Virus record (IMG/VR): IMGVR_UViG_3300028364_001588
Strand: one strand, 5' to 3'
DNA length: 64,000 bases
Source: a virus
Position numbers and translations under genes: made by a program. Of this stretch, positions 32,358-59,969 are shown in pieces (the stretch's first letter is position 1; every line of letters starts with the position of its first letter). The notes beneath the pieces were generated by a model. It had not been told where the DNA came from. It made no database searches and saw nothing but the letters and a program-made list of their open reading frames with translations.

Positions 32358-32423
32358 CAAAAAACTATAAAACAAAAAAGCTCGTTAAAATTAATTAACG
32401 AGCTTTTTTTATGTTCCAATGTA

Positions 32424-44376: not shown

Positions 44377-46056
44377 ATGAGCGAATTATTGAACAGTGGT
44401 AAAGTTGGACTTACAGTCTTCAAAAACTTAGCTGAACAAAGAAAGGCGATTGTAACAAGTTGGTCTGATTCAGGACTTCTTGACGAAGGGTACGATGTAA
44501 ATGGTGCTCCAATCAGAATGAAAGGAATCAAAGCTGCAAACGTAGCACAACTTTTAGAAAATCAAGCTGCAGCAATGTTGAACGAGGTAACTCTTGATTC
44601 ATCTGCAGGTAGATTCGATACTGTTGCATTCCCAATCGTAAGAAGAGTATTCTCAAGATTACTTGCTAACGAAATTGTTTCTGTACAGCCTTTGGCATTA
44701 CCATCAGGATTATTATTTTACATGGATGCGAGAGTATCATATGCTGGACAAGATACAGCATTTAACGCAAACCCTCCAGGTATCACAAACGGAACAGGAC
44801 AACGTGACATCGTTGCGCCTCAAAACACAGCTAACGGACAAGCAGGTCCAGTTTTTGCTGACACTACAGCTTACGAGCGTTTTTACAACAACCAAGGTTT
44901 TGATATGTCTTTCGGGACAGGAGAGACAGTTATCGGTGGTGCTGCAGCTTCTGCAGCAACTGCATGGGTTGGTGGACTTAACAATATGGTTTTCAACTTA
45001 GGTGTTGGATTCGATACTTCTAAGCAACAATCTTCTGCAACACTTAGATTTACAGCAGCTACTGATGTATATCTTTCAGGTGCAGCAGGAAACACGTTAC
45101 TTATAGCAGCAGGTGGAACTATTCCATTCTACTCTTCAGTACAAACGTGGGCAGAAGACCAATACCAAGACGGTTTTGCAAGAGTAATTCTTGACCTTAG
45201 ACCAGCTGGTGTATATGGGAATGATTTTGATGCTAACCTTCTTAATGATGGTGCAGGTAACTTCGGTGCTGCGTACTCTCTTCAAGCTGGAGCGCTTTAC
45301 GAAATCTTTAACGATTTAGAGGCTAAGTCAGAAATGGCTGAACTTACAATCAGATTCTCATCTGTAACTGTAAACACTGTAACAAGAAAACTTAGAGCAC
45401 ACTGGACTCCAGAACTTGCTCAAGACCTTGAAGCATACCACTCAATTGATGCTGAGGCTGAGCTTACTGCTCTTCTTTCTGAGCACGTTGCAGCGGAAAT
45501 TGATAGAGAAATCATCATCGACCTTATTAATGGTGCGCCATTCAGAGCAAGATGGGATTACAACGGACTTTCATCTAATGCGAACTTCTTCGGAACTCAA
45601 AAAGATTGGAACCAAACTCTTATCACAAGAATTAACGAGCTTTCAGCTCAAATTCACAAAGCAACACTTAGAGGTGGAGCGAACTGGATTGTATGTTCTG
45701 CTGAGGCAGGAGCAATCTTTGATGACTTAGAATACTTCCACGTTGACGGTAGCGCAGCTCCAGAAAGCGAAAAGTATAACTTAGGAGTTGAGAAAATTGG
45801 TAACTTAGGTTCAAGATACGTAGTATACAAAGACCCTTATCTTCCAGCTAATATCGTACTTCTTGGACACAAAGGGAACACGTTCCTTGAGGCTGGGTAC
45901 ATCTACGCACCATACATCCCTCTTCAGTTGACACAAACTATCACTGACCCTAACGACTTCACACCTCGTAAAGGAATCATGACTCGTTATGCGAAGAAGA
46001 TGGTTAACAACAGATTCTACGGAGTTGTATACATTGATAACATTAACACTTACTAA
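44377..46056 (+). CDS. Major capsid protein (T4 gp23-like)
   Basis: LLENQ, FPIVRRVF, VSVQP..LPSGL, TRKLRA.WT.ELAQDL.AYH, EIDREI, YAPYIPL, FTPRKGIMTRY. Confidence 0.97.
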   Translation: MSELLNSGKVGLTVFKNLAEQRKAIVTSWSDSGLLDEGYDVNGAPIRMKGIKAANVAQLLENQAAAMLNEVTLDSSAGRFDTVAFPIVRRVFSRLLANEIVSVQPLALPSGLLFYMDARVSYAGQDTAFNANPPGITNGTGQRDIVAPQNTANGQAGPVFADTTAYERFYNNQGFDMSFGTGETVIGGAAASAATAWVGGLNNMVFNLGVGFDTSKQQSSATLRFTAATDVYLSGAAGNTLLIAAGGTIPFYSSVQTWAEDQYQDGFARVILDLRPAGVYGNDFDANLLNDGAGNFGAAYSLQAGALYEIFNDLEAKSEMAELTIRFSSVTVNTVTRKLRAHWTPELAQDLEAYHSIDAEAELTALLSEHVAAEIDREIIIDLINGAPFRARWDYNGLSSNANFFGTQKDWNQTLITRINELSAQIHKATLRGGANWIVCSAEAGAIFDDLEYFHVDGSAAPESEKYNLGVEKIGNLGSRYVVYKDPYLPANIVLLGHKGNTFLEAGYIYAPYIPLQLTQTITDPNDFTPRKGIMTRYAKKMVNNRFYGVVYIDNINTY

Positions 46057-46095
46057 GCCGAAAGGATTAGAAAGGTTTATCATAAACTAAAAATT

Positions 46096-46126
46096 AGAGA
46101 GATTCGAAAGAGTCTCTCTTTTTTTT
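46096..46126 (+). terminator. Terminator after the major capsid gene
   Basis: AGAGAGATTC-GAAA-GAGTCTCTCT followed by a T-run. Confidence 0.85.
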
Positions 46127-46252
46127 GCCTTAAACTTTCGCACATTAAAAACGTGCTATAACAGTTGCTAAACACAACTTCGCAGATGTTTAGCTTTGTG
46201 TTGTAGTGCATTGAAACGACACTACAACACGCTATATAAGTAATAAAAAATA

Positions 46253-46453
46253 CTACTTCTGTGCTTTTTTAAGGGCATATTTCTTTTCCCAAGCCGTTCG
46301 CTCAAAATCTAAGTATTCAATTAAATAGTCTAATGTTTTTAGTTTATCCCATTTTTTTAATTCATCTTCTGTGTAGTCGCTCTCTATTTCACAACTACAG
46401 TCATTAGATACTTCTTCTATGAAGTTTTGTATTTTATCAATGTCAAATTCCAT
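46253..46453 (-). CDS. Hypothetical 66-aa protein inside the loop of site B
   Basis: ORF enclosed by inverted arms 46231-46253 and 46481-46503. Confidence 0.55.
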   Translation of the reverse strand: MEFDIDKIQNFIEEVSNDCSCEIESDYTEDELKKWDKLKTLDYLIEYLDFERTAWEKKYALKKAQK

Positions 46454-46509
46454 ATTTATTTATTTAGTGTTAATTTTTCCGTATTTTTTACTACTCATAT
46501 AGCTATCCG

Positions 46510-46782
46510 TTAATAATTTTTTTGCCTTTTAAAATCAGACCATAAAATAACTATTGTTGCTACAATTAACAGTCCTGCACTTATTAAATGTATCGGTACA
46601 GTAAAAGGCAAAAGTGAAAACCCAAAACAATGATGTAGGTACAAACTAAATGCTGTTATTACCCAAGTTATCATTTGTGGTATTATTATAATCGCTCTGT
46701 GTTTTGGCTTATCTAAATAACTAACAACAACATTTGGTATAGTGCATTGCTCTGTTTCTGTTTTTTTATTGTCTGTATTCAT
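46510..46782 (-). CDS. Cassette-like two-TM membrane protein
   Basis: Two hydrophobic helices; N-terminal EQCTIPNVVVS is encoded by the repeat arm; the stop TAA overlaps the TAAC core. Confidence 0.6.
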   Translation of the reverse strand: MNTDNKKTETEQCTIPNVVVSYLDKPKHRAIIIIPQMITWVITAFSLYLHHCFGFSLLPFTVPIHLISAGLLIVATIVILWSDFKRQKNY

Positions 46783-46902
46783 AATTCAAAGTTTTTATAT
46801 TATTTATGTGCCAACGAAGTTCGTCTGCGATTCCATAATGCTCATCTGCACCATCATCTTTAATACATCTAACTTTAATTCCTATTCTCGCTACTTCCAT
46901 AA

Positions 46903-47193
46903 TTAATCAGTTAATGTGCCACACTCCTTAGAAAGTTTCAGAAATTTCTCAATCTTCAACTTCTTCTTTTCAATGGCGGTTCGGTCCAAAATTTTTTTTA
47001 TGTGTCCTTCATCTAACAAAATCTCCATCATTGCAAAAATGTCATTAAATTCATAAACGATTCTTTCTGAGTTAGTTAGCTCTTGACCAGGTTGTACTTC
47101 CTGAAGACTGAAACGTAAAGCTTTGGATGCTCTAACCGCTGTTTCACAACATTCTTCCTCAAGAATTTTTAACAAATGTTCTTGTCTATTCAT
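46903..47193 (-). CDS. MazG-like nucleotide pyrophosphohydrolase
   Basis: EECCE...SKALRF...EFND acidic motif; TAGCTTTG promoter element directly upstream. Confidence 0.65.
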   Translation of the reverse strand: MNRQEHLLKILEEECCETAVRASKALRFSLQEVQPGQELTNSERIVYEFNDIFAMMEILLDEGHIKKILDRTAIEKKKLKIEKFLKLSKECGTLTD

Positions 47194-47213
47194 ATTGCAA
47201 AGCTATAGAAATT

Positions 47214-47816
47214 TTATGATTCGTACAACTCGTAGAAACGATTTAAGAATAATTCCTCTGCCTCCAGTGGAGAAATCTGAGGAATAAAACAGTTAGAAAT
47301 TTTCTCTTTACGTAAAAATTTTCTGGCATCCCTAAGTGAGATTTCTTTTTCAAATGAGCATGCTGCTATTTCGTCACAATTAATAACTACTGCAACAAGT
47401 TCTTTTCTAAGTATATGATTATCAACATCATGTACACGTTGAGAAAAAGGGAACTCCAGTCTAAATTTTTCGAAAATTATCTTCTGAATCTTATCTTCCT
47501 CCAGTCTGTAGTGTTCGAATTCTGGCCTGTGCTTAATTGGTCGGACCAAATCATTCACAAATGCTTCAGATGCATCGTGGAGTAAAAAAGCTAACTGTTC
47601 TTCTTTTGTCCCTTCTTCAAGAGAGCATAAATAAGAATGTAAAGCTACTGAATAATGAAAGAGGCAATGTCCTCCATATCTACATAGATTTGATAATGCA
47701 TGAGCAATATCTTCAATATCAATGTCATCATGACTAAGGTTAAAAATATCAACCTCTTTACCAGAGTAGAGAGTCATTGTCATTGGTTTAATGATACTTT
47801 TATTTCGTACTTCCAT
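47214..47816 (-). CDS. HD-domain 5'-deoxynucleotidase (YfbR/YfdR-like)
   Basis: DIAHALS..CRY.GH...YSVA.HS, LLHDASEA...D...PIK; TAACTTTG promoter element upstream. Confidence 0.85.
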   Translation of the reverse strand: MEVRNKSIIKPMTMTLYSGKEVDIFNLSHDDIDIEDIAHALSNLCRYGGHCLFHYSVALHSYLCSLEEGTKEEQLAFLLHDASEAFVNDLVRPIKHRPEFEHYRLEEDKIQKIIFEKFRLEFPFSQRVHDVDNHILRKELVAVVINCDEIAACSFEKEISLRDARKFLRKEKISNCFIPQISPLEAEELFLNRFYELYES

Positions 47817-47861
47817 AAACTATAAGTTTTGGTGTACTGGCAAAGTTAAGTAAAATATCCT

Positions 47862-48473
47862 TTACGACAAAATCTTTCTTAATTCCTCCTTGATTATAGA
47901 CCTAATTTCATTAAGGCTTTTATGAGACATATAGTATCTTAAAGCTTGTGGTTTAAGAGCTGGTATCTCATCTGGATTCGGAGCAAACCCAAGCCTGCTA
48001 ATAGTGTTTAAATATTGAATTTGGTCGTCAGCATCCAGATAAACAAGTTCTTCTGGAGTAAAAGTTGTATCAATAGAATATTTAATCTTTTCTTTTACAT
48101 AAAAATGCCTTAATTCATCATTTGCAAGTAAATTAAATTCATCTGGTTTAAGTTGAATACCAGTTGATATAGTATTGATAATAAATTTCTTTTGCAATTT
48201 TTCTGGAAGTCTCTTAAGGTCTGCTTTTTGTAAAAATCTTTTTTTAACTATGTAAATTTCCTTTTCTTTATCTGGCATAGCATTAAATTCATAATCCTCC
48301 AGCCAATCAGAAGTTCTAACACGATTATAAAAATATGCACTTCTATTATTTGGGACCAGGTATTTTATTTCCTCTTCAGAAAGTTTTGTATTTTTAATCA
48401 CAAGGTCGTTTACAAAAGCAATTTTTTGCTCTGTAGTCATGTTCTCAAATCTATCTCTTTCGAAGTTAATCAT
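47862..48473 (-). CDS. Hypothetical helical-repeat protein with C-terminal head-targeting-like motif
   Basis: LNEIRSIIKEELRKILS; TATTTAT at 48495-48501. Confidence 0.5.
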   Translation of the reverse strand: MINFERDRFENMTTEQKIAFVNDLVIKNTKLSEEEIKYLVPNNRSAYFYNRVRTSDWLEDYEFNAMPDKEKEIYIVKKRFLQKADLKRLPEKLQKKFIINTISTGIQLKPDEFNLLANDELRHFYVKEKIKYSIDTTFTPEELVYLDADDQIQYLNTISRLGFAPNPDEIPALKPQALRYYMSHKSLNEIRSIIKEELRKILS

Positions 48474-48558
48474 AAAATTATAAGTTTCTCCCCTATAAAT
48501 AGTCTAAAACAAATAGGAATCAAAATTTCTCAGCCTATTTATAATAAAAATTATAATT

Positions 48559-59884: not shown

Positions 59885-59969
59885 TATTTCTTGACGACCT
59901 AAACAGGGTTTATGAGAAAATAAAAAAGCCACCTAAATTAGGTGGCTTTTTTATTTGTATATTTGTAAT

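Follow-up and report, generated by a model that had tools for sequence, protein, structure and literature searches.

Genomic setting of the locus

The window, that is, the whole 64-kb stretch of DNA analysed here, forms the last part of a 101.5-kb IMG/VR virus record (IMGVR_UViG_3300028364_001588) whose completeness is estimated at 31%. The capsid protein gene (44377-46056, plus strand) has relatives in large phage contigs (63-94% identity), two of which are complete, at 372 and 519 kb, and the closest named phages have Flavobacterium and Polaribacter as hosts. Between the terminator of the capsid gene and the neck genes, which start at ~48559, lies a minus-strand accessory block consisting of ORF66, ORF90, ORF44, a MazG-like gene, an HD 5'-nucleotidase gene and a 203-aa gene (Table 1). 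The proteins of ORF66 and ORF90 gave no match in Pfam or PHROG, and the body of ORF90 likely forms two membrane helices, as judged by eye. ORF44 is annotated as a gene in its counterpart in contig L115. No tRNA or tmRNA was detected in the window, and when the locus and three related loci were scanned against Rfam, nothing came close to any gathering score.

Comparison with relatives L004-L015 indicates a hot spot of the giant-phage clade between capsid and neck genes (46057-48558): nothing lies there in L009, the gap measures ~250 nt in L007 and 1.7 kb in L008, and in L004, L013 and L015 it is occupied by differing genes. Homology with the closest relative, L004 (92% capsid identity), breaks off at 46125, and a HAD-family gene plus a 77-aa gene are found there instead of window positions 46126-47223. 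The two breakpoints of this older replacement fall in the T-run of the terminator (46125) and at the 3' end of the HD gene (~47224); since neither lies at a site of the family described below, a cassette system does not explain it. Variation at the hot spot mostly proceeds without involvement of that site family, and no site sequence was found at the junction at the MazG-like gene. The MazG-like pyrophosphohydrolase and HD 5'-deoxynucleotidase genes are adjacent near the capsid gene (46903-47816); L004 retains the HD gene, and there the HAD-family gene, translationally coupled to it, replaces MazG.

Table 1. Features of the locus between the capsid and neck genes; positions are those of the window.
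Feature	Position	Strand	Basis or remark
Terminator hairpin after the major capsid gene	46096-46125	+	Terminator scan; left edge of the variable region
Decayed terminal site, most of site A	46126-46197	-	GTT plus half arm, second copy of the loop motif, private 8-bp hairpin
Compact folded site, 11-bp perfect stem (GTGTT... / ...AACAC), conserved loop with CGTTTCAATG	46198-46230	-	Repeat, fold and covariance-model match
ORF66 cassette unit	46198-46512	-	AAC core, 23-nt left arm, ORF66, 23-nt right arm, GTGTT, compact hairpin, AAC
Right arm (minus-strand sense) of the 23-nt inverted repeat around ORF66	46231-46253		Repeat search
ORF66, acidic 66-aa protein of unknown function, cargo in the site loop	46253-46453	-	Open reading frame
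Left arm (minus-strand sense) of the 23-nt inverted repeat	46481-46503		Repeat search
AAC core common to both units, ORF90/ORF66 cassette junction	46509-46511	-	Homology ends at 46509 (ORF90) and starts at 46511/46512 (ORF66)
ORF90 cassette unit, 5'-truncated, long-form left arm missing	46509-46807	-	Contig comparison
ORF90, 90-aa protein	46510-46782	-	~18-residue leader from the right arm of the site, plus hydrophobic body
Right part of the ~150-nt long-form site (ribosome-binding region, ATG, leader, right arm, GTT)	46729-46795	-	85% identity to Freya, E 5e-11
ORF44, doubtful gene	46766-46900	-	Overlaps a weak remnant of a long-form left arm (~46808-46870)
MazG-like NTP pyrophosphohydrolase	46903-47193	-	PHROG 4856, E 1.3e-15; neighbour gene, no bounding family site

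Four palindromic sites within 700 nucleotides

Four sites lie within 700 nt of each other at the locus: a compact one, a long one with 23-nt arms, a long-form one that is truncated, and one that has decayed. A first-pass annotation, made from the letters alone, had read this region as an integron-like cassette array with GTT/AAC cores, and the sequence features that it listed are all present where it placed them. The 23-nt arms, which it described as enclosing the whole 66-aa ORF, are 91% complementary, both mismatches being G.T on the minus (sense) strand, and the repeat pattern has two matches in the window for 0.02 expected. The perfect 11-bp inverted repeat (46198-46208 / 46220-46230) is likewise real and is among very few perfect hairpins of at least 10 bp in the 101 kb that are not A-run/T-run terminators. 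The 90-aa ORF does stop on a TAA that is followed by C, giving TAAC on the minus strand (46512-46509), and the description of the third site, in which this ORF was said to start, as partly deleted fits as well: only the right part of a longer palindromic module is present, without its left arm. Exact searches of IMG/VR with the 23-nt arm and with the hairpin arms gave no match.

Two elements of that annotation need revision. The sequence proposed as its first site, site A, exists, but its outer arms form only seven of ten Watson-Crick pairs, with three G.T on the plus strand, and minimum-free-energy folds prefer the 8-bp and 11-bp hairpins over the outer stem; most of it is a decayed terminal site, with a second copy of the loop motif carrying one extra T (46143-46153) and a private hairpin (46167-46174 / 46187-46194). 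Neither the stretch 46126-46197 nor this 8-bp hairpin is common to the other contexts of the ORF66 unit. The 11-bp hairpin, for its part, which had been suggested to be an 'empty cassette', belongs to the ORF66 unit and is carried along with it.

The perfect hairpins of this phage are for the most part bidirectional terminators of the A-run/stem/T-run type (8529-8562, 32374-32409, 59918-59956 and others), clearly unlike the GTT/AAC hairpin in form.

ORF66 and ORF90 travel as units bounded by AAC

Ten homologues of ORF66 were recovered, with 66-98% identity. In three contigs (L111, L112 and L113) the ORF66 unit is 98.4% identical over 304-315 nt while the flanks are unrelated, its neighbours being an exonuclease-like gene, an SSB gene and other small ORFs. 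Homology starts at (T)AAC in all three; it ends at the AAC that closes the hairpin in two of them, and inside the hairpin loop in L113. In the 80-kb contig L108 the unit is 89% identical, and no other unit separates it from a 268-aa recombinase gene; from GTGTT onward, this copy has a different hairpin, with compensated arms, in place of that of the ORF66 unit. Altogether, a start at (T)AAC was found in five contexts and an end at the hairpin AAC in three. Two DNA methyltransferase genes (PF00145, PF02086) occur among the small ORFs upstream in L108 (1-2040).

The ORF90 unit behaves in the same manner. Six contigs (L116-L121) carry it at 99% identity over 299 nt, with five different downstream neighbours, and all diverge right after AAC; a seventh, L115, is 100% identical to window positions 47069-46509 and then continues into a different cassette. 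The AAC end of this unit was observed in eight contexts, and an identical ORF90 is encoded on a 147-kb contig. The copies in L116-L121 possess six extra bases (TACAAC), with which pairing to the arm behind the leader is complete again; the junction in the window used the first of the two AAC triplets. Moreover, the unit that follows ORF66 in L111 is the one that follows ORF90 in L119, and the same holds for L112 and L121, which indicates that cassette order has been reshuffled.

All junctions that we read are at AAC, and the sequence in common there can be as short as 3-5 nt. Two properties of integrons, cassette boundaries at a core triplet and the presence of the same cassette in different arrays and orders, are thereby fulfilled. 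The 5' boundary of the ORF90 unit in the window lies inside the central region of its site and not at AAC, and the left arms of long-form sites are mosaic among contigs. Together with a 127-nt repeat at an indel between two arrays (L126 and L127, below), this indicates that homologous recombination also reshuffles these regions.

A long-form site supplies a ready-made protein leader

The similarity of the truncated site to the Polaribacter phage Freya covers the ribosome-binding region, the ATG and 18 codons, beyond which the proteins are unrelated. An exact 19-mer from this right part occurs in 13 IMG/VR contigs, each with a different small protein behind the same leader, and these contigs share ~60 more bases upstream, bringing the whole module to ~150 nt. 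The ends of the module form a long-range stem with a 21-bp consensus, including three G.U pairs, and with AAC at the base of the left strand and GTT at that of the right; one position is doubly compensated, in phage P12002S. The left arm is what the window lacks. The module is common to the Polaribacter phages Freya and P12002S, and was single-copy in every genome examined.

At least 13 unrelated small proteins begin with the ~18-residue leader (MNTDNKKTETEQCTIPSV) encoded by the right arm of the long form (comparison of L084-L096, L001, L097 and L106 with window positions 46729-46782); in L106 the leader stretch sits mid-way in a 146-aa ORF. The idea that the leader is a capsid-targeting signal was set aside; non-coding DNA is conserved to the same degree, and the conserved part coincides with the site's right arm. 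We rejected the module as a phage attP with a host attB: a scan of 185,579 species genomes with the 19-mer returned one chance match and one phage-like Lutibacter contig.

A constant leader joined to many C-terminal bodies, and whole ORFs flanked by inverted repeats, are also what an inversion switch of the inverton or shufflon type would produce, where an invertase flips genes on and off or swaps C-terminal parts at inverted repeats; the recombinases linked to arrays (see below) do match models of tyrosine-type invertases, if weakly. However, both orientations of a segment, which would mark such a switch, were not found among the recovered contexts: the seven of ORF66 and the twelve of ORF90 are all collinear, with a constant orientation relative to the sites. 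Differences consist of presence/absence or replacement, never of inversion, and each segment carries one ORF with no alternative reading on the other strand. We regard an inversion switch as quite improbable.

Distant homologues of ORF90 (68%) lie in arrays of 30-38 co-oriented small ORFs. Two ENA contigs, L126 (18.1 kb) and L127 (12.0 kb), consist of arrays whose ORFs encode 34-126 aa and many of whose spacers contain family sites; the 127-nt repeat mentioned above is found at an indel between them. Two of the arrays with distant ORF90 homologues differ by a 2.1-kb block. One ORF in these arrays carries a Tad8 (anti-Thoeris) domain, which hints at anti-defence functions among the cargo.

A family of sites whose structure is conserved above its sequence

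In such arrays, many of the intergenic sites take the form of a compact hairpin: the loop is CGTTTYAATG, and the stem sequence varies from site to site. The 11-bp hairpin in the window belongs to this group. The short form has a stem of ~10-11 bp, and long forms accommodate the start of a gene or a whole gene in the loop. Across ten sites and ten stem pairs, double-sided changes occupied 23 cells, against 10.7±2.4 in shuffles (0/500 as high), and the covariation score was 0.578 against 0.262 (0/500); slid controls were all lower. The site is an imperfect palindrome that folds and whose structure is conserved above sequence, as is required of an integron site.

A covariance model was searched against 463 kb. 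Its single match in the 101-kb record is the hairpin in the window (46191-46235, 39.8 bits, E 2.5e-6), and it found none in the giant relatives; elsewhere its many matches occur only in arrays and only on the ORF-sense strand. The loop motif similarly appears in the 101 kb only at 46209-46218 and, with one extra T, in the terminal site. Further copies of the site, with covarying stems, do exist in other phages, as the first-pass annotation had required; within the window phage the family is confined to one locus. A profile built from 22 left-arm instances found nothing significant in the genome, the window's own left arm included, so that the membership of the latter rests on architecture and not on a profile score.

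Mismatches within stems, counted on the sense strand, comprise 13 G.T and no A.C. This count is partly biased, because stems were defined on the sense strand, and a G.T bias is equally compatible with mRNA structure and with folded single-stranded DNA.

Could the sites be chance palindromes and ordinary terminators in AT-rich intergenic DNA, whose neighbour genes vary for unrelated reasons? AAC and GTT are common in such DNA, the outer stem of site A is weak, and the left-arm profile gave no significant match in this genome. Nevertheless, the 23-nt repeat was hardly to be expected, the loop motif is restricted to this locus, the stems covary, and the unit boundaries are exact. A chance origin is extremely improbable, and is already contradicted by the repeat expectation, the unit boundaries, the covariation and the covariance-model search.

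Cultured phages that differ by whole cassettes

The Freya phages constitute a natural experiment. Their array of small ORFs stops 57 nt before a 271-aa integrase gene, and six plaque-purified isolates (Freya_2, 5, 6, 8, 9 and 10), otherwise 99.7-100% identical, differ only by blocks of small ORFs directly upstream of this gene. The 44.8-48.9-kb size range of Freya_2 to Freya_10 (L099/L100/L098/L101-L104; MT732464-MT732472) arises wholly from the presence or absence of blocks.

At every Freya junction read, ...AAC is the end of a block and directly precedes either another block or the integrase leader; the ends of the indels have 8/11 bases in common. Blocks are built as AAC, left arm, loop with an optional ORF, right arm, GTGTT, an arm x, ORFs or none, the complementary arm x' and AAC. 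One x/x' pair (28 nt, 89% complementary) spans three ORFs. Genes are found inside site loops in the case of ORF66, Freya10_78 and the Freya_6 cassette, and between sites in the case of others, as had been inferred from the window alone. The paper describing the Freya phages makes no mention of arrays, block polymorphism or cuts at AAC.

The exact change of gene content at the AAC/GTT core, observed for the ORF66 and ORF90 units and for the Freya isolates, is the result on which the first-pass annotation had staked its reading, breakpoints elsewhere being named as its refutation; the reading survived. On these comparisons, the two small genes behind the capsid gene of this giant marine phage are self-contained mobile cassettes bounded by folded sites. 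What is established is that the units are discrete and mobile with AAC as their boundary, that the sites form a structured family, and that isolates are polymorphic for cassettes.

Recombinases at the ends of arrays

In Freya, L108 and L093, arrays end 57-100 nt before homologous recombinase genes, the linked tyrosine recombinase that the first-pass annotation had proposed to look for; in L093 the gene follows a cassette that bears the long-form module. The three proteins (~270 aa) are 33-42% identical to each other (Freya versus L108, 36%) and Xer-like (PF13495 plus PF00589), with the XerA model as best match. Against the integron-integrase model TIGR02249 they reach 96 and 140 bits, for a cut-off of 265, and align in two stretches only; the integron integrase IntI4 in the PDB matches in sequence over the N-terminal half only.

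No recombinase is encoded in the window, as had been noted from its letters, and a PF00589 search of the entire 101-kb record (~31% complete) revealed no tyrosine recombinase in the remainder either. None was found in the two complete giant relatives, nor in P12002S, G010 and G011, complete or near-complete genomes that do bear sites; the link to the enzyme is accordingly not universal. With no recombinase found in the 101 kb of this incomplete record and sites nowhere else in it, the locus would be a recombinase-less cluster, comparable to a CALIN.

The absence of an enzyme from some carriers bears on an account that would need none, in which the palindromes and 5' modules are regulatory or structural elements of transcripts, shuffled by general or microhomology recombination. 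There is a precedent in the PeSLs of T4-type phages, which combine a strong sigma-70-type promoter with a terminator stem-loop and recombine by homology, related phages differing by insertion, deletion or replacement at the motifs, and for which mini-circles have been proposed (Arbiol et al., 2010; PMC2839356). Several site-bearing phages, the window phage and P12002S among them, lack a tyrosine recombinase; the long-form site holds a ribosome-binding region, a start codon and a leader; left arms are mosaic, and a 127-nt repeat accompanies the indel between L126 and L127; and mismatches of G.T type only suit RNA folding. In contrast, RecT-type annealing would need more than the AAC and few further bases that junctions have in common, the triplet at which they fall is nevertheless always the same, and three arrays end at homologous recombinase genes. 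The hairpins also lack a T-run (a U-run in RNA), and a scan for sigma-70-type promoters, from which Bacteroidota-type promoters were left out, gave 11 for 13.1 expected, none at the sites, so that the combination of promoter and terminator that defines a PeSL was not found. We consider enzyme-free shuffling unlikely as the main explanation, and retain it as a serious alternative on two grounds, namely that the enzyme is absent from some carriers and that recombination also occurs at longer repeats.

Discussion

Proposed movement of cassettes in trans

Taken as a whole, the explanation that we favour, with only a modest lean in its direction, is that the locus is a two-cassette, recombinase-less cluster in the capsid-neck hot spot, moved in trans by an Xer-like enzyme. 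A tyrosine recombinase of ~270 aa, of the kind encoded at the array ends of related temperate phages, would act in trans, during co-infection or from a prophage. It would recognise the folded sense strand of the site and exchange strands at or beside AAC/GTT; units would be excised as circles and reinserted at other sites, as IntI does with attC. Catalysis by the recombinase, its action in trans, recognition of a folded strand, and excision and insertion of circles are inferred, with no experiment or circle data behind them. The mechanism is directly testable at the bench, since the cultured, plaque-purified Freya_2 to Freya_10 already differ by whole cassettes.

A broader hypothesis, which we put forward tentatively and would hold slightly more doubtful than sound, is that Flavobacteriia phages share a pool of small-gene cassettes that constitutes a second, independently built system of the integron type, with the giant phage as a passive recipient served in trans. 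It includes a short Xer-like recombinase without the extra domain of IntI, sites that fold on the gene-sense strand, and sites whose own loop carries either a gene or just the start of one, which has no promoter but brings a ready-made leader. Its carriers would span from 45-kb temperate siphoviruses to giant myovirus-like phages. A literature search retrieved no published description of such arrays in Bacteroidota phages. If this hypothesis is true, capture of cassettes at folded sites evolved, or diversified, more than once, and the spread of near-identical small accessory genes between unrelated marine phages would be explained. The accessory genes carried by cassettes are probably anti-defence genes, one array member having a Tad8 domain.

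Comparison with known systems

The arrays resemble Xer/dif modules in pairing a small Xer-like tyrosine recombinase with short palindromic sites, and shufflons (Rci/sfx) in joining a constant N-terminal coding part to variable downstream parts. They differ from both in showing no inversions, in having many sites per array with differing stems, and in the position of the breakpoints, which is the outer AAC except in a single case, L113, where it is the central spacer. As with PeSLs, hyperplastic regions of large phages contain small ORFs whose function is unknown and which have repeated stem-loops on their flanks; unlike PeSLs, the sites here have no sigma-70-type promoter or U-run, identity at junctions is limited to a few bases, and several phages have a dedicated recombinase linked to the array.

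The closest parallel is with integrons. These consist of IntI, attI and cassettes bounded by attC, and CALINs are clusters of attC without an integrase. To our knowledge, integrons have been seen as an invention of bacteria that depends on a single enzyme, IntI, and on a single type of site, attC. As in integrons, small co-oriented cassettes each have a foldable, imperfectly palindromic site; stems are cassette-specific and covary, the AAC/GTT exchange triplet is conserved, cassette ends are complementary and stop codons overlap the core; and arrays end at a tyrosine recombinase of the Xer/IntI branch. The cluster in the window, as far as the incomplete record shows it to be without recombinase, would correspond to a CALIN. 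The system is nevertheless integron-like in logic and not an integron: the integron-like reading of the first-pass annotation holds for the AAC/GTT cassette logic and fails for the machinery, as there is no IntI, the recombinase of phage arrays is only ~270 aa long and scores far below the integron-integrase cut-off, and the core flanks (TGCTAAC, TACCAAC, GTTAGCA) do not fit RYYYAAC/GTTRRRY. Unlike in integrons, the exchange point, viewed on the sense strand, is on the side of the site that is nearer to the gene, and array genes consequently point toward the recombinase gene; G.T wobbles likewise point to the sense strand as the one that folds. Finally, whole genes or gene starts lie inside the loops of the sites, and the carriers are phages.
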